A DNA stretch of 64,000 nt. It comes from Candidatus Falkowbacteria bacterium. Its GTDB lineage: Bacteria > Patescibacteriota > Patescibacteriia > UBA11705 > JABHMO01. The position numbers and the translations under genes were made by a program. The notes beneath the pieces were generated by a model. That model worked only from the letters and a program-made list of their open reading frames with translations, searched no databases and was not told where the DNA came from. Shown here in pieces: positions 2,175 to 63,624 of this stretch. Within the stretch, counting starts at the first letter, position 1, and each line of letters opens with the position of its first letter. The stretch spans positions 30,683-94,682 of the forward strand of contig JABHAL010000015.1 in NCBI GenBank assembly GCA_018674305.1. The letters run 5' to 3'.

Positions 2175-4043
2175 ATGCAAAAAGTAGCTCAAATAATACC
2201 CCATAAAAAATTGCCTCGTAGCATGCATTATTTTGATTATTCAATTCCTAAAAATCTAGAATTAGTGCCTGGTCAAATTGTTAATGTACCATTCAAAAAG
2301 AGTGAGATGTTGGGAATTGTGCATAGTTTGAAAGATAAATCAGAATTCAAATATATCAAAGAGGTTATCAGTTTGGAACCCAAAATAAAATCTTTAGTAC
2401 CCTATCAGTTGGAATTTATTAATTGGTTTAGCCAAAATTATTATTATTCAAAAGGGTCGACTTTGGATTTGTTATTGCCACACATGCCTAAACGTAAAGT
2501 AAAGGTAGTTGATAAAAAATTAGAAATCCCAGTTTCTGAGTTGAAGGAAAATCAAGAGGTTAAGGATTTAGCTGAAAAAATTAGCAAATCAAAGACTCGT
2601 AATTTTTTATTATTTCCTTTCGATATTAATTTAAAGAGGTGTTTATATTTAAATTTGATACAGGATATTGTAGCGCAAGAAAGGCAAATTTTGATATTGT
2701 TTCCACAGGTTTACAAAGTTCATGAATTCTATGCTCACTTGAGTCCTGAATTACGTAAACAAACCGCAGTATTAACTTCTGATTTGTATACTTCCAAGGC
2801 GCGTTATTTCACAGCTTGGCAGAAAATAAAATCTGGTGAAAGTAAAATTATTTTGGGTACCCGTTCTGCGGTGTTTGCGCCATTGTCTAAATTGGGAACC
2901 ATTATTTTGGATGACGCTCATAGTGATGATTACAAGCAATGGGACCAAAATCCCCGTTATGAAACTCAAAAGGTTGTTCAAAAAATTCAGGAAATAACCA
3001 ATTGTAAATTGATTTTATCATCATTAACTCCCAGGGTTGAAGACAGTTACTTGGCGAAAGAACAAGATTATAAGTACATCTCCTTGGGAAAAAAAACAGC
3101 ATCAGAAATCAAAATTATTGATCTAAAGAGAGAGCGAGAAAAATCATTTACTTATTTGTCAGATGATTTATTGAATTCAATTAAAATAGCAAACAAAAGT
3201 TTGTTAATTGTAAATAAACTTGGTGAGTATAGTTATTTCTTTTGCGAAGACTGTGGATTTGAGGCTACTTGTCCTGAGTGTAAATTACCTTTAACGGTTG
3301 AAAATAATCAATTGTCTTGTTACCGCTGTGGTATAAAACAGTCTGTCTATTTGAACTGTCCTAAATGTCGCAGTGTGAAGTTGAAAAAGCTTGGAATCGG
3401 GTTACAGCAAATAAAAGAGCAATTGCGAAATGTTTTGGGTGCTGAAGTTTGTGATTTAACCCAGGATGAGAATAGTTCGACCGCTAAGATATTGATTTCT
3501 ACTGGTCAGCAAATTAAGACAAAGCATTTTCAAAATTTAGAGTTACTGGCTTTTGTATATATAGATAGTTTGGCCTACTTGGCTGACTTTAATTCCAATT
3601 TTAAATTGTATAGTTTTCAACAAGAATTAATTCATCGTGCCGTTGGCGCAAAAGTTATTGTGCAAACTTGTTTTCCTGAGAATCTAGCGTTTCAAAGTCT
3701 AAATCAAGGTTATGATTATTTCTATAAACAAGAGATTGATAGTAGAAAAACATTTGGCTATCCCCCATTTGCAACACTGATAAAGTTATTTTTTGATCAT
3801 CATGATAAAACAGTTTGCGAAAGAGAAGGTTCGAATTTTCACAAGCAAATTAATTCATTGATTACCCAAAACAAAGGCAAGATTAGTGAGCCATATTTAC
3901 ATTATCGACAAAAAGTTCGAAAACGGTTTCGTTGTCAAATGGCGATATTTTTACCTGAGCTTGATCTTTCAGTTGAAAATGAGATTTTAGCTCAGGTAAC
4001 AGAGCATTGGACTATTGACAAAAGCCCGATTGACCTGTTATAG
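2175..4043 (+). CDS. priA: Primosomal protein N' (PriA) homologue with degenerate ATPase motifs
   Basis: PriA-like N-terminal 3'-DNA-binding domain (PHKKLPRSMHYFDYSIP...VNVPF), Cys4+Cys4 zinc-binding insert (CEDCGF..CPEC...CYRCG...CPKC), TRSAVFAP motif; Walker A GxxGSGKT is replaced by PFDINLKR and DEEH by DDAH. Confidence 0.75.
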   Translation: MQKVAQIIPHKKLPRSMHYFDYSIPKNLELVPGQIVNVPFKKSEMLGIVHSLKDKSEFKYIKEVISLEPKIKSLVPYQLEFINWFSQNYYYSKGSTLDLLLPHMPKRKVKVVDKKLEIPVSELKENQEVKDLAEKISKSKTRNFLLFPFDINLKRCLYLNLIQDIVAQERQILILFPQVYKVHEFYAHLSPELRKQTAVLTSDLYTSKARYFTAWQKIKSGESKIILGTRSAVFAPLSKLGTIILDDAHSDDYKQWDQNPRYETQKVVQKIQEITNCKLILSSLTPRVEDSYLAKEQDYKYISLGKKTASEIKIIDLKREREKSFTYLSDDLLNSIKIANKSLLIVNKLGEYSYFFCEDCGFEATCPECKLPLTVENNQLSCYRCGIKQSVYLNCPKCRSVKLKKLGIGLQQIKEQLRNVLGAEVCDLTQDENSSTAKILISTGQQIKTKHFQNLELLAFVYIDSLAYLADFNSNFKLYSFQQELIHRAVGAKVIVQTCFPENLAFQSLNQGYDYFYKQEIDSRKTFGYPPFATLIKLFFDHHDKTVCEREGSNFHKQINSLITQNKGKISEPYLHYRQKVRKRFRCQMAIFLPELDLSVENEILAQVTEHWTIDKSPIDLL

Positions 4044-4182
4044 TTATGTTTAAATTACCCTAATTGTTCTAATTAATCTAAAATGAACAAACCCCAATTC
4101 AAACGTTTGTTTTGGAGTTGTAGCTTTGAAATTGTTTATAATAATTTCCTTTTGTGTTTATTTTATGGTTTAATATTAATAT

Positions 4183-4641
4183 ATGATTAAAGAGATCGTC
4201 ACTCATCCAGATGACAGGCTAAGAGAAAAGTCTAAAGACGTAAGTTTGGGTGAAATAACAACTGAAAAGTTTAGTCAATTAGTAAAAGATATGACTGAAA
4301 CTATGAAAAAAAAAGACGGAATTGGCTTGGCTGCTCCGCAAATTGGAGTTGGAAAAAGAGTGGCTGTAATTAATTCAAAAAATGGAGTCATTATTTTTGT
4401 TAACCCAAAAGTTGTACGGAAGTCATTTCTTAAAGATATAGATGAAGAAGGTTGCTTAAGTGTTCCAGGTAAATATGGCAAAGTTAAGCGTTGCCGAAAA
4501 ATAACTGTTCGCTTTGACGATGGCCAGGGTCAAAAAAATACAATTGTAGCCAGAGGGTTATTTGCTCGAGTCATACAACACGAGCTTGATCATTTAGATG
4601 GAATTCTTTTTATTGATAAGTTAGTCAAATCCAAAAAGTAA
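4183..4641 (+). CDS. def: Peptide deformylase
   Basis: GIGLAAPQIG, EGCLSVPG and HELDHLDG motifs. Confidence 0.9.
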   Translation: MIKEIVTHPDDRLREKSKDVSLGEITTEKFSQLVKDMTETMKKKDGIGLAAPQIGVGKRVAVINSKNGVIIFVNPKVVRKSFLKDIDEEGCLSVPGKYGKVKRCRKITVRFDDGQGQKNTIVARGLFARVIQHELDHLDGILFIDKLVKSKK

Positions 4642-13091: not shown

Positions 13092-13123
13092 GCCTGCCTA
13101 CCGTAGTTTTAACGAAGGTAGGA
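13092..13123. repeat. 31-nt hairpin element (cctacc-gtagttttaacgaa-ggtagg), member of a family also found at 63465-63495
   Basis: 26/31 identity to the reverse complement of 63465-63495, with a compensatory double change in the stem. Confidence 0.5.
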
Positions 13124-28745: not shown

Positions 28746-31463
28746 CTATTCATCTTTTTTACAACACACAACATACACTACCAACATACCCAGTGCAATT
28801 ATTGATATTAATCCTCCAAAATAAAACACATTTTGTGGCCAAAATTCCAAAACAACTAATCTTGTTGGGCCAAGTACTGAATCATCCAATTGCCAACTAT
28901 TAGCATAACCATTTGCCAATCTAACCGGCGCTAAATTACCTTCATCACGAGAAAATACTTTTGTGAAAAAGTTTTGTTCTTTATCAGTTTCATATGTTTT
29001 TATAGTCCAACCTGAGTTATAACCATTGTTAAAAACTAAACTATAAATACCATCCAACTTAGGAACCTCTACAACATACTTGCCAGGATTTAGTTTAGCA
29101 AATTCTAAACCTTGATCATAATCTGGTTGAATATTTTCTTGATTATAAACAAAAAGCAAATTGTTCACAGGTATAGCATATATTGAATGTCCTTCAGCAT
29201 TCTTAATATCTACAGAATAAATATCTTTTTCAAGATTAAATTTACCAAAGTCAATCCAATCACCAGACATAACAACATCACTTCTAATTACTTTATCGTC
29301 AAGACTTAAATATACAGGTGCTTCTAAACCTGCTTCATTCAAATTAAAATATATTTCATACTCACCCGTATGAACAATCTCTAATTTGTAATCATCCAAA
29401 ACAACATTTTCCGTGTTGTAATTTACTTCTCTTTTTAGTCTAGCTTGTTCCTCTGAATCACTGATTTCTGTAGCCTCTTTTAATTCTTTATTGAACTCTG
29501 CTAATTTATCAATATCTGTATTATTAGCAATTACTTCAACTGCATATTCTCCATACTGACCAGCTTCAGAAAAATGAATTACAGGTTTAAAGTTATTATT
29601 ATATTCAGAAATATCCAAGTAAGAAATCAAAGAACCCATATCACCATCAATAACAATATCTTTATTAGCAATGTACAAAAACGGTGTAAAATCATTATAT
29701 TCGTATAAATCAATATTCTCACTTAAACTCAGCAAGTTCAAATCCTTATTATTCATTAAATATTCTTTTTGTTGTGAAATATTCCAAATTCTAGCACAAC
29801 TAAAATGCGGTACTATATCCGTGCGGAAATAAACATACTGAATATTTAAAATCTGTAACATTTTTGAATACAACTCTGAATTTTTTGCTTGACATTGAAA
29901 ATCTCGAAAACCTTGCAACAACTTCTCACCCATTTTATTACTAAATCCTTGATCAACCACAACATTAAATGGTGCAAATATTTGATTCACATCAACACCC
30001 TGGCCATCTAACTGATAATCATTTGGTACAAACGCTGGTGAAAAAGAAATTGGTTGAGCCAGAACCTTGGCACCTTCAAGATTCTCATCTAGATATTCAT
30101 AAACTTCTTCCAAATCTGGATTTAACTGATAAACATCAATATGATCTTTATTTTTTTTAGTTAAAACCTCTCGTCCTATATCTCCTAAATACCAGTATGG
30201 CAAACTCCAGACAAGCAAAATTATAATCAAAACACTTTTAGCAATTTTCTTATTTACCTTTTTTAAATCTTCAAAAATCAAAGTAAATCCGTACGCAAAA
30301 ATTATTGTTAAACAAAACAACACACCAGGAATATAATGCTGCGCAGATCTGAACATAGCATAAGCAGAAAAATGTTGTACTAACCAAAGCACAAAATCAC
30401 CAAATGGCGGGTTTCCACTTGTAGCAAAAATCATGAAGATAACAAATGTAAATAACCAAAATAAAATATCCTTATTAAACTTCTTTTTTATCGTGACATA
30501 AAGAAAGGTTCCAGCCAAAGACAAATACATTACAGCATACCAAATTGGCAAAATCACATTTGACATCGTAGCTGTAAACATGTGTCTATCAAAAAAACCA
30601 GTACCGACTAACATCTGCCAAACCTTTGGAGCAGACTGAATATTTTTCAAAGCAATACCAGCAAAACCTTTCTGAGCTTTCAAGCCTGATAAATAACCAA
30701 AATCAGCAATCATTGGCACAATCCAATAAGCGTTTAAAAACAAGGAAAAAACTCCAACAAGTATTAATCGTTTAATAATCTGCCAATCTTTTTTCAGCCA
30801 AGCATACCAACTACAGTATAAACAAAACATTACTACCACAAATACAAATTGTTGAATTGAGATCATCAAGGCAGTAATTAGAACTGCTGAAGTTAGCAAA
30901 TATATCTTGCGAGAACTGTTAATCAAATAATGGAACGACAAAAAACACCATGGCCAAAGAGCATAGGCCAAAAACTGACTCATAGCTCCACCAATAAATT
31001 CAGAAAACAGGAATGGTGAAAACCCATACAATAAACCACCAACAAAAGACATTAAACCAAGATTTGCTTCCAATTTATAGTGTTTAAGCAGCCTTCTTAA
31101 ACACAGATACATACCAAAAGCTGCTAAAGTCATTGTAAAAATCAATAAAAACTTAGAAAAGTAATTACCATCCAAATCAAGCAAAGAAAATGGCCCAACC
31201 AAAATAATTCTTAACAATTTCACTGGCAAGGTCAAAGACATAGCAGAAAAACCTAAAACAGAATCTTTCCAAAGATAAAAGGAAGAATAAACTTGATTAG
31301 ACAGAAACGAAGCCATGTTCGGTACTGACCAATCCCAATTATGTCCAACTGTACCCACAGTGCTAAGTAATTTTCTTATCGAAAAAACAGCCATTAGCAC
31401 ATATAAACAAAAGGCTGACACAATTTGAACTTTATTTTGTAGAAACAATTTTTTCAATTTCAT
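28746..31463 (-). CDS. Large (~900 aa) polytopic membrane protein with big extracytoplasmic C-terminal domain (GT-C / YfhO-like candidate)
   Basis: About 14 N-terminal TM helices then a ~450-aa soluble region; start uncertain (31463 or 31496). Confidence 0.4.
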   Translation of the reverse strand: MKLKKLFLQNKVQIVSAFCLYVLMAVFSIRKLLSTVGTVGHNWDWSVPNMASFLSNQVYSSFYLWKDSVLGFSAMSLTLPVKLLRIILVGPFSLLDLDGNYFSKFLLIFTMTLAAFGMYLCLRRLLKHYKLEANLGLMSFVGGLLYGFSPFLFSEFIGGAMSQFLAYALWPWCFLSFHYLINSSRKIYLLTSAVLITALMISIQQFVFVVVMFCLYCSWYAWLKKDWQIIKRLILVGVFSLFLNAYWIVPMIADFGYLSGLKAQKGFAGIALKNIQSAPKVWQMLVGTGFFDRHMFTATMSNVILPIWYAVMYLSLAGTFLYVTIKKKFNKDILFWLFTFVIFMIFATSGNPPFGDFVLWLVQHFSAYAMFRSAQHYIPGVLFCLTIIFAYGFTLIFEDLKKVNKKIAKSVLIIILLVWSLPYWYLGDIGREVLTKKNKDHIDVYQLNPDLEEVYEYLDENLEGAKVLAQPISFSPAFVPNDYQLDGQGVDVNQIFAPFNVVVDQGFSNKMGEKLLQGFRDFQCQAKNSELYSKMLQILNIQYVYFRTDIVPHFSCARIWNISQQKEYLMNNKDLNLLSLSENIDLYEYNDFTPFLYIANKDIVIDGDMGSLISYLDISEYNNNFKPVIHFSEAGQYGEYAVEVIANNTDIDKLAEFNKELKEATEISDSEEQARLKREVNYNTENVVLDDYKLEIVHTGEYEIYFNLNEAGLEAPVYLSLDDKVIRSDVVMSGDWIDFGKFNLEKDIYSVDIKNAEGHSIYAIPVNNLLFVYNQENIQPDYDQGLEFAKLNPGKYVVEVPKLDGIYSLVFNNGYNSGWTIKTYETDKEQNFFTKVFSRDEGNLAPVRLANGYANSWQLDDSVLGPTRLVVLEFWPQNVFYFGGLISIIALGMLVVYVVCCKKDE

Positions 31464-53224: not shown

Positions 53225-53256
53225 AACAACTACAACGGATCTCACAAGGTCAACTT

Positions 53257-53295
53257 ACCTGCCGAAGCTCAACAGAGCAAAGGCAGGTTTTTTAT
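53257..53295 (+). terminator. Rho-independent terminator (acctgcc...ggcaggt tttttt)
   Basis: 7-bp stem plus T6. Confidence 0.7.
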
Positions 53296-62896: not shown

Positions 62897-62909
62897 CCTC
62901 TTATTAACT

Positions 62910-62980
62910 GGCTGCGCCATTCGATATGTCCGTTGGAGCTTTACGCGAAAACGGAAGCTCCGACTCATGGAGGAGCGAAG
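62910..62980. repeat. Left copy of the 40-nt direct repeat (ggctgcgccattcga|agctccgactcatggaggagcgaag), interrupted by a 31-nt hairpin insertion (62925-62955)
   Basis: Identical to 63305-63344 except for the inserted tatgtccgttggagctttacgcgaaaacgga. Confidence 0.7.
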
Positions 62981-62990
62981 TTACAGTTTC

Positions 62991-63248: not shown

Positions 63249-63304
63249 ATAGATACGGCCCTTCTTCGCGTTAAGCTACGAAGGACATTCTTCGCTTTTT
63301 TTAC

Positions 63305-63344
63305 GGCTGCGCCATTCGAAGCTCCGACTCATGGAGGAGCGAAG
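63305..63344. repeat. Right copy of the 40-nt direct repeat flanking the GIY-YIG ORF, abutting the tRNA-Thr 3' end
   Basis: Exact match to the two halves of 62910-62980. Confidence 0.7.
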
Positions 63345-63346
63345 AA

Positions 63347-63422
63347 TGGAGCCGACGGAGGGACTCGAACCCACGACCAATAGTTTACAAAACTACTGCT
63401 CTACCAACTGAGCTACGTCGGC
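63347..63422 (-). tRNA. tRNA-Thr (anticodon UGU), 76 nt, CCA-encoded
   Basis: Manually folded: acceptor GCCGACG/CGUCGGC, D GCUC-AGUUGGUA-GAGC, anticodon stem GUAGU/ACUAU with loop UUUGUAA, T-arm GUGGG-UUCGAGU-CCCUC (one U-U mismatch), discriminator U, CCA. Confidence 0.75.
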
Positions 63423-63448
63423 CTGTTTTTTGTAAATTGCAACAATCT

Positions 63449-63561
63449 CACGACCAATAGTTTATCTACCTACGTTAAAACTCCGGCAGACAGGCAAAAC
63501 TACTGCTCTACCAACTGCTGCGTCCTCCGAAGCTTTATGCGAAGGCGGAAACTACGTCGGC
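63449..63561 (-). pseudogene. Truncated 5' copy of tRNA-Thr (positions 1-51) interrupted by two ~31-nt insertions (D-stem, 63518-63549; anticodon between nt 35/36, 63465-63495)
   Basis: Segments GCCGACGTAG / CAGTTGGTAGAGCAGTAGTTTTG / TAAACTATTGGTCGTG identical to the intact gene; the T-arm and 3' half are absent. Confidence 0.5.
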
Positions 63562-63624
63562 GAAACTGTATGACGATAATAACAAATCAACTGTAAATAG
63601 TCAAGTGTGAATAAACCCTTTGAG

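Follow-up and report, generated by a model that had tools for sequence, protein, structure and literature searches.

What are the two short inserts that interrupt a partial copy of a tRNA gene in the 64,000-nucleotide stretch analysed here (the window: positions 30,683 to 94,682 of contig JABHAL010000015.1 from a Candidatus Falkowbacteria bacterium), and how did they come to be there? The copy lies on the minus strand, directly upstream of an intact tRNA-Thr(UGU) gene. A preliminary description of the sequence had proposed a small element that targets tRNA sequence: a decaying intron-like or miniature insertion element, or what is left of a mobile element with tRNA-Thr as attachment site. Each insert proves to be a complete unit of a single family of hairpins, here called M, one in the forward and one in the reverse orientation relative to the tRNA. 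The same family sits at the same position in fragments of many other tRNA genes and builds the leader of a small GIY-YIG nuclease gene that adjoins tRNA-Thr. On balance it is probable that M is an element resembling repetitive extragenic palindromes (REPs) or miniature inverted-repeat transposable elements (MITEs), that it lands on tRNA genes and that a dead pseudo-copy took up two units of it, the GIY-YIG nuclease being an enzyme that may mobilise them.

The interrupted copy of tRNA-Thr

The intact gene, one of two tRNA genes found by ARAGORN in the window (the other is tRNA-Trp), was aligned with the 153 nt upstream of it to give a base-by-base layout (Table 1). Positions 1–51 are repeated at 63561..63449, with 50 of the 51 bases identical to the intact gene. 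The preliminary description had the copy identical apart from the insertions, which is nearly correct, the exception being C11, which is T in the copy. It had also placed one insert correctly between anticodon positions 35 and 36, but this insert is 30 nt long rather than 31. For the other, the length of 32 nt was right but the supposed replacement of C11-U12 was not: the insert lies at a clean junction between positions 12 and 13 (12/13; a slash marks the point of insertion here and below) and C11 is simply substituted. The copy is indeed truncated, as had been said, since it stops at position 51 and has neither the rest of the T-arm nor the 3′ acceptor strand. No target-site duplication and no ambiguity of the boundaries was found in the alignment at either insert.

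A separate repeat search recovered colinear exact repeats of 23, 16 and 10 nt between the copy and the intact gene, so the match is not due to chance. The segment is identical in the ENA assembly, in the NCBI metagenome-assembled genome (MAG) GCA_018665965.1 and in the Logan assembly; as these are independent, it is not an assembly artefact either. The Logan contig stops within insert 1, which is where a repeated k-mer would be expected to break an assembly. In the MAG sequence (L002) one base of the intact tRNA differs from the window, at alignment column 332 (about window position 63369): the T-loop reads GGGCTCGAG instead of GGGTTCGAG, a change at the normally invariant T54 which may be a polymorphism or simply an error.

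Two mini-introns in a functional tRNA gene would fit the seamless insertion points, one of which is in the anticodon loop, where bacterial group I introns and archaeal bulge-helix-bulge introns also interrupt tRNA-like sequence. Such a gene should yield a complete cloverleaf and this one does not, the copy ending at position 51 with the T-arm and the 3′ acceptor strand absent. ARAGORN, run with intron models and lowered thresholds, called nothing in the pseudo-copy, and a scan of the locus with Rfam at E ≤ 10 matched only the intact tRNA, with no tRNA in the pseudo-copy and no intron family. Neither a group I ribozyme core nor a bulge-helix-bulge motif was found in the inserts, which are simple hairpins of 30–32 nt in a truncated host copy, and positions 12/13 and 35/36 are not known intron sites. 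When the hairpin was deleted in silico from 86 comparable junctions in other genomes (described below), a complete tRNA resulted in none. The pseudo-copy is a non-functional 5′ partial copy of the tRNA-Thr gene, and the probability of an intron-bearing gene, or of an artefact in spite of the three agreeing assemblies, is negligible.

The notion of an attachment-site relic fared little better. tRNA genes are classical integration sites, and a partial duplicate beside such a gene could be what an integrase-type element leaves behind. Integrase-type events leave a second copy of the tRNA's 3′ part, whereas here it is the 5′ part that is duplicated and it lies upstream; the two copies are only 26 nt apart, and no integrase, recombinase or transposase family is listed in the gene table within ±10 kb. 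This origin is largely refuted and must be considered very unlikely.

A family of hairpins in and around the locus

The M hairpin is about 30 nt long. Its first arm, of 5–6 nt, leads into (C)TTCGC and a short loop; GCTWCG, the second arm, which is complementary to the first, and a tail resembling CAGG follow. In a repeat analysis of the locus, insert 1 resembled three other pieces, located after tRNA-Thr, before the GIY-YIG gene and after the GIY-YIG gene. No exact or near-exact copy of either insert (up to 3 mismatches) was present in the window; the relationship becomes visible only with a structure-aware model of the family.

The M pattern with perfect arms occurs 81 times in 437 kb of related loci, against 4 times in shuffled sequence. 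A covariance model, R1, was built from 67 distinct M hairpins, all from other genomes. In the alignment of these copies 98.3% of the cells pair (76% in shuffles), and the pairs that were not imposed by the selection of copies covary: 6-21 is CG or UA in a ratio of 59:5, 11-16 is CG or UA in a ratio of 59:8, and 12-15 is UA or CG in a ratio of 30:25.

A search of the whole 64-kb window with R1 (filters off, E < 0.01) gave seven matches, five of them inside the 700-bp tRNA-Thr/GIY-YIG locus (Table 1). Both inserts are among them. The boundaries of the match to insert 2 coincide to the base with the gap in the tRNA alignment, and the copy in the window most closely related to it is the solitary one after queA, which shows that the family is present elsewhere in the genome too. 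Insert 1 has a G·A mismatch in its arm and folds weakly. The two inserts are decayed, with arm mismatches, weak folds and low scores when set against the 40–48 bits of pristine copies elsewhere. The inserted sequences are not absent elsewhere, as a refutation of the first proposal would have required, when they are taken as members of a family; the idea of a small tRNA-targeting element gains support from their membership in one hairpin family.

Rfam 15 has no family for the motif; a scan of the locus and 12 related loci at E ≤ 10 gave only tRNA and transfer-messenger RNA (tmRNA). A literature search found no description of the M hairpin or of a linkage between GIY-YIG genes and tRNA. The tRNA-Trp gene of the window is free of fragments, and no M lies at either of its ends. 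In some metagenome contigs M forms tandem arrays with no tRNA nearby (L147 424-621, L116 10983-11057, L100 95-239); the period is about 44–51 nt in L147 and L116 and the spacers are constant (..GTAGTTCGTAGTT..), a satellite-like use of M.

Table 1 Features of the locus and M hairpins in the window
Feature	Position	Strand	Details
Putative promoter	63604..63576	-	sigma-70-like TTGACT-17 nt-TG-n-TATTAT; 10/12 matches, extended -10
Pseudo-tRNA-Thr positions 1-12	63561..63550	-	GCCGACGTAGtT; C11 to T; from alignment and repeat search
Insert 1	63549..63518	-	32 nt, TCCGCCTTCGCATAAAGCTTCGGAGGACGCAG; between tRNA positions 12/13
Insert 1 as forward M	63519-63549	-	R1 18.9 bits, E=0.008
Pseudo-tRNA-Thr positions 13-35	63517..63495	-	23/23 identical to intact gene
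Insert 2	63494..63465	hairpin on +	30 nt, CCTGTCTGCCGGAGTTTTAACGTAGGTAGA; between anticodon positions 35/36
Insert 2 as M, reverse relative to tRNA	63465-63494	+	R1 23.6 bits, E=4e-4
Pseudo-tRNA-Thr positions 36-51	63464..63449	-	16/16 identical; ends 3 nt into T-stem
Spacer between pseudo-copy and intact gene	63448..63423	-	26 nt
Intact tRNA-Thr(UGU)	63422..63347	-	ARAGORN; Rfam tRNA model 71.9 bits
M1, forward M	63311-63349	-	R1 19.5 bits; left arm CCATT begins with tRNA-Thr C74-C75-A76
Long-range helix, 3′ strand	63286..63296	-	AGCGAAGAATG, pairs with CATTCTTCGCT at 63348..63338; 11 nt, 100% complementary
Reverse M just before GIY-YIG start codon	63259-63289	+	R1 19.7 bits; conserved in GIY-YIG leaders
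GIY-YIG gene, 85 aa	63248..62991	-	bare nuclease domain; Pfam PF01541, 4.6e-13, residues 5-73
M1 copy B, 5′-truncated, 3′ of GIY-YIG gene	62908..62980	-	linked by 27-nt exact direct repeat
M nested in M1 copy B	62925-62955	-	R1 24.2 bits
Degenerate M	53254-53287	-	R1 20.7 bits; about 460 nt 3′ of tRNA-Trp
Solitary M after queA	13093-13122	-	R1 33.4 bits, E=8e-7; best preserved in window

Filled and empty sites

The locus holds three pairs of filled and empty sites. Two are inserts 1 and 2, for which the intact tRNA provides the empty site. The third involves the forward M at the 3′ end of tRNA-Thr, named M1. A 27-nt exact direct repeat (63318-63344 and 62954-62980) shows that M1 is present twice, as copies A and B, on either side of the GIY-YIG gene. 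In copy B a 31-nt M lies between GAGCT and TCGAATGG (GAGCT/TCG) and in copy A this site is empty; the nested site is also occupied in an unrelated Patescibacteria contig (L034).

None of the three insertions has a target duplication, and the arms of M act as inverted repeats. The left flank ends in ..GCT at the 12/13 site (TAGCT/) and at the nested site (GAGCT/), in both cases resembling the GCT/WCG of the M core itself, but in ..TTTA/ and ..GGGT/ at two others. The likeness of the GCT flanks to the core may point to a shared motif for recognition or cleavage. After copy B comes CCA-GTTAAT (CCA-GTTAATAAGAGG) and then by the promoter-like site of rpmG (L33), whereas copy A has CCG at the place of this CCA. 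This stretch (62908-62922 and the bases beyond it) may represent the 3′ flank that tRNA-Thr had before the insertions displaced it.

The same junction in other tRNA genes

JGI metagenomes were scanned for the junction TAGYT followed by M with a 4-nt loop, and it was found in at least 120 contigs. In the 80 metagenome stretches that were retrieved there are 86 such junctions. A tRNA gene lies on the same strand within 202 nt downstream of 45 of them, and in 32 of these 45 the fragment is the first 12 nt of that very tRNA (about 35 if an offset of one base is allowed). Nine tRNA identities are represented (Lys, Val, Met, His, Thr, Ile, Pro, Arg and Ala). This repeated use of one site in many different tRNAs again agrees with an element that targets tRNA, as first proposed. 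A matching tRNA upstream of the fragment was found in none of the 86 cases.

The fragments vary in extent: some reach position 12 only, some about 17–33 and some about 50, the last with further small palindromes (the window and L155). Inverted doublets are common, in which a forward M, CAAGAC...GTCTTG and a reverse M are flanked by a direct repeat of tRNA positions 1–12. Judged from their sequence, these doublets resemble a MITE or a REPIN (a doublet of inverted REPs) with a 12-nt target duplication.

Fragments of a tRNA's own 5′ end, followed by M, also precede tRNA genes at GIY-YIG loci: tRNA-Val in L033, tRNA-Ile in L044, and L010, where the fragment mismatches the adjacent tRNA. A distant relative, L089, has an acetyltransferase that is 45% identical to the one neighbouring the locus in the window. 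At its orthologous tRNA-Thr(UGU)-rpmG locus two tandem fragments, GCCAGCATAGCT, followed by M or other hairpins and with the hairpin at 12/13, precede the intact tRNA-Thr; there is no GIY-YIG gene at this locus. Comparison via the acetyltransferase, for which there are only two relatives, did not yield an empty site, as one has no tRNA-Thr there and the other, L089, has its own fragments.

A similar pattern is seen in the same genome about 6 kb past the high end of the window (L001 3060-3410), at a tRNA-His gene (3124-3199). A 5′ mini-fragment, GGTGGGCGTAG, lies upstream of it. Downstream is a 3′ pseudo-copy (T-loop to CCA) whose T-loop is split by a 35-nt GC-rich double hairpin, followed by M1, the long-range helix and a reverse M (see below) and then by hisS, with no GIY-YIG gene. 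GC-rich palindromes other than M (e.g. CCCCAAAGGGGCCCCTTCGGGG) likewise occur in tRNA fragments of AT-rich Patescibacteria genomes (L089 6745-6770, L034 1533-1553, L155 about 4120-4200, L004 2471-2492). The L155 site is a tRNA-Ile pseudo-copy of about 50 nt with several small-palindrome inserts, a close parallel to the window.

The position of the fragments raises the possibility that they have a function. In the window a promoter-like site ends 14 nt 5′ of position 1 of the pseudo-copy, and no second such site was found on the minus strand between it and the intact tRNA. Lying between the sole good promoter-like site and the intact gene, the pseudo-copy probably forms a transcribed leader of about 150 nt for the functional tRNA-Thr. 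(A perfect 9-nt inverted repeat, TACAGTTTC/GAAACTGTA at 63562-63570 and 62982-62990, abuts pseudo-copy position 1 and the GIY-YIG stop codon; it was not counted as an element end, as chance alone would give about two repeats of this kind in 1.1 kb.) The 5′ fragment with its hairpins might then be under selection as part of the pre-tRNA, or serve as a binding site for protein; roles as a processing or regulatory module, or as a platform for the GIY-YIG protein or an RNase, are conceivable. Transcription from that one promoter-like site, the 32 to 0 excess of fragments upstream of the matching tRNA, the occurrence of the arrangement at the orthologous locus of L089 and the covariation of the hairpin arms would all fit a functional leader. 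So would the match of the tRNA-derived parts to the mature tRNA while the inserts decayed, which would have been kept by selection and not by gene conversion.

The details are less favourable to a selected leader. The fragments range from 12 to 51 nt and their number from one to two or more, the fragment of L010 is unlike the adjacent tRNA and the hairpins of the pseudo-copy are degenerate. M is also found behind queA and hisS and in tandem arrays that have no connection with tRNAs. The direction proves nothing by itself: whenever the 5′ end of a gene is caught in a partial tandem duplication, the fragment comes to lie upstream. A functional leader is an unlikely, if serious, alternative.

The neighbouring GIY-YIG gene and its leader

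Downstream of tRNA-Thr lies a gene for an 85-residue protein. Its sequence is 100% identical to an NCBI entry under the name Candidatus Falkowbacteria. Its closest solved structures are UPF0213 (1zg2, 3.4e-10) and the structure-specific nuclease SLX1 (2.8e-7). In an alignment with other GIY-YIG proteins, Y8, Y19 and R30 are invariant and the Glu is present in 7 of 8 sequences. The protein belongs, by its sequence, to the UPF0213/SLX1-like GIY-YIG nucleases and has kept the conserved Tyr, Tyr, Arg and Glu positions. It had no match in phage and plasmid collections, PHROGs, PADLOC or NCBIfam.

The family is represented at no fewer than 442 loci among GTDB representative genomes. Of the 80 loci that were retrieved, 63 have a tRNA or tmRNA gene upstream, on the same strand and no farther away than 330 nt, at a distance of 56–316 nt (median 128). 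The tRNAs are those for Ala, Gly, Val, Ser, Ile, Met, Pro, Asp, Lys, Arg and His, and the hosts include Patescibacteria, Bradyrhizobium, Gammaproteobacteria, Verrucomicrobiota, Marinimicrobia, Dependentiae and others.

The leader between the two genes is built from M. It starts with a forward M whose left arm is the CCA of the tRNA plus two or three bases. This M1-like arrangement, with covarying arms, is found in 26 other tRNA/tmRNA loci, and in 23 of these the tail of M is followed by CCA or CCG again. The bases after CCA vary by lineage (TTC, CGC, GCC, CCC, TGC, TCC) and every partner changes along with them. A long-range helix, in which CCA-NNN-CTTCG pairs with CGAAG-N′N′N′-TGG, spans the leader; in the window it takes in the CA of the CCA end of tRNA-Thr, and it too covaries between lineages (e.g. 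CCACGCTTCG/CGAAGCGTGG in Bradyrhizobium). The leader ends with a reverse M just before the start codon. R1 gave 128 matches in 405 kb of GIY-YIG loci, nearly all within 300 nt before the GIY-YIG start, and in many leaders the modules are shuffled or tandemly reiterated.

Three loci show further arrangements. In L065 (2279-2824) the GIY-YIG gene is flanked by two tRNA-Ala genes identical over positions 1–62, and in L072 (947-1581) two tandem GIY-YIG paralogues follow one tmRNA gene. In L061 (about 130-165) the leader is joined to a 3′ fragment of tRNA-Gly (T-arm to CCA), about 60 nt downstream of the intact gene, and not to that gene itself; tRNA-His in the genome of the window shows this arrangement as well.

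The proximity of the nuclease gene suggests a further explanation, namely that the protein is a homing-type endonuclease that cuts tRNA genes and that the patchwork of fragments results from error-prone repair with template switching. The gene adjoins tRNA-Thr, the tRNA-His of the same genome carries both 5′ and 3′ fragments, the shuffled and reiterated leader modules would fit such repair, and there is a precedent in phage T4, whose GIY-YIG endonuclease SegB cleaves DNA in a region of tRNA genes (PMC2330249). Seg genes, suspected to be selfish, lie beside tRNA genes as this one does, but Seg proteins are phage-borne, with a C-terminal DNA-binding domain and a length of about 200 aa or more. 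The protein here is chromosomal and a bare catalytic core (85 aa, domain at residues 5–73), without a DNA-binding domain and without PHROG, phage or plasmid matches. Each insert is a whole, exactly bounded hairpin unit and not a random fragment; the identical 12/13 junction in so many contigs points to a defined reaction, and most of these contigs have no GIY-YIG gene nearby. Repair scars appear rather unlikely as the source of the pseudo-copy, somewhat more so than a functional leader.

A possible mechanism

If M is a mobile element that targets tRNA genes, it would land at fixed landmarks. One would be the site after position 12 (..TAGCT/C..). Another would be the 3′ end of the tRNA, where the M arm would supply or overlap the CCA. 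A third would lie inside other M copies, at the similar GCT/WCG site. M would survive only where harmless, and insertions of M were seen only in partial tRNA duplicates or flush with gene ends. The pseudo-copy would be a dispensable 5′ partial duplicate, possibly from tandem duplication, that absorbed two copies. A duplicated leader, 40 nt long, is indeed present in L139. As M copies build the leader of the GIY-YIG gene, the nuclease may recognise M; a structure-specific GIY-YIG nuclease would then mobilise the hairpins in trans. The link between the two is one of association: M copies always enclose the gene, and relatives of its product cleave structured DNA, which would suit such a role. 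Gene conversion from the adjacent gene would be the simplest answer to the question of how tRNA parts with 50 of 51 identical bases can stand beside decayed hairpins, its main rival being selection on a functional leader.

Several points weigh against this mechanism. No pair of sister strains that differ by the presence or absence of M was found. The number of copies looks low, seven in 64 kb with five at one locus, which is unlike classical REPs. The GIY-YIG gene is present in only 4 of 82 metagenome stretches with the 12/13 junction, and the proposed action in trans is drawn entirely from the leader association. The decayed inserts beside nearly perfect tRNA sequence need either gene conversion or selection. 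At many other loci the fragment measures exactly 12 nt and has flanks that look more like a target duplication, which a simple hit on a pre-existing pseudo-copy does not explain. In the window itself the spacer (63448..63423) and the leader upstream of the pseudo-copy were compared as a test for tandem duplication; their similarity is not significant (p=0.09). Finally, the arms of M contain too few non-Watson-Crick pairs for G·U and C·A mismatches to separate constraint at the RNA level from constraint at the DNA level.

A broader proposal is possible, if doubtful: M and the 85-aa GIY-YIG protein may together form an undescribed and phylogenetically very wide class of mobile elements, a GIY-YIG counterpart of the REPIN-RAYT partnership. 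The nuclease would move hairpins or doublets into tRNA and tmRNA genes, after position 12 and at N73/CCA; the CCA would be restored by the hairpin arms, which would keep the host gene functional, and the nuclease gene would ride on tRNA promoters.

Comparison with known systems

The M system works most like the REP/REPIN-RAYT system (RAYT, REP-associated tyrosine transposase) or the hairpin-dependent IS200/IS605 elements, with something of a MITE. Like REPs, M is a short palindromic hairpin with a conserved asymmetric core and compensatory changes in its arms, it occurs singly or as inverted doublets, and there is a single-copy nuclease gene flanked by oppositely oriented copies, with little or no target duplication. 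The enzyme is where the likeness fails. RAYTs are Y1/HUH transposases, whereas the gene flanked by M encodes an 85-aa GIY-YIG nuclease. M also lacks the GTAG or CGTC head, has few copies in the window (seven in 64 kb) and lies at defined positions of tRNA and tmRNA genes, not at generic intergenic sites.

The single-strand "peel and paste" transposition of IS200/IS605 is precise, without target duplication, directed 3′ of a short specific motif and dependent on hairpin ends. The insertions of M are similar, with a left flank of ..GCT/ at the 12/13 and nested sites but not at the two others. M differs in being only about 30 nt long and in having no TnpA or TnpB gene; no TnpA (Y1) transposase family is present in the gene table of the locus. 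The likeness to MITEs lies in the arms, which act as inverted repeats, and in the 12-nt direct repeats that flank the doublets, although none flank the insertions in the window.

Miniature hairpins in or near structural RNA or protein-coding genes are also known as Rickettsia palindromic elements, Neisseria Correia elements and mitochondrial GC clusters or double-hairpin elements. These are tolerated where they are harmless, and their sequence families differ from M. To our knowledge, none of them is tied to position 12/13 of tRNAs, to the CCA end or to a GIY-YIG gene.

The nearest published context that was found is a report on bacteria of the candidate phyla radiation, whose rRNA genes contain insertion sequences that are not introns, some of which encode GIY-YIG proteins (PMC11270868). 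The bacterial group is the same, structural RNA genes are invaded by short sequences, these belong to neither group I nor group II introns, and there is an association with GIY-YIG genes. The report concerns rRNA genes only, and neither the term tRNA nor the M hairpin appears in its text. The new part here would be palindromic mobile repeats with a different partner enzyme and a specificity for tRNA landmarks, the pseudo-copy being a by-product.

Conclusions

M is absent from Rfam and the protein is labelled only "GIY-YIG nuclease family protein". If the proposed mechanism is correct, a partnership of repeat and nuclease has been missed by current annotation. This would explain why, in many phyla, small UPF0213-type GIY-YIG genes immediately follow tRNA and tmRNA genes, why tRNA fragments litter the tRNA loci of ultra-small Patescibacteria and why assemblies break at such loci. 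Tools for tRNA finding and quality checks of MAGs should expect pseudo-fragments of this kind. For the large and uncharacterised UPF0213 family it would suggest what substrate to test, namely a hairpin whose internal loop is CTTCGC/GCTWCG, together with a GCT/C site of cleavage or insertion.

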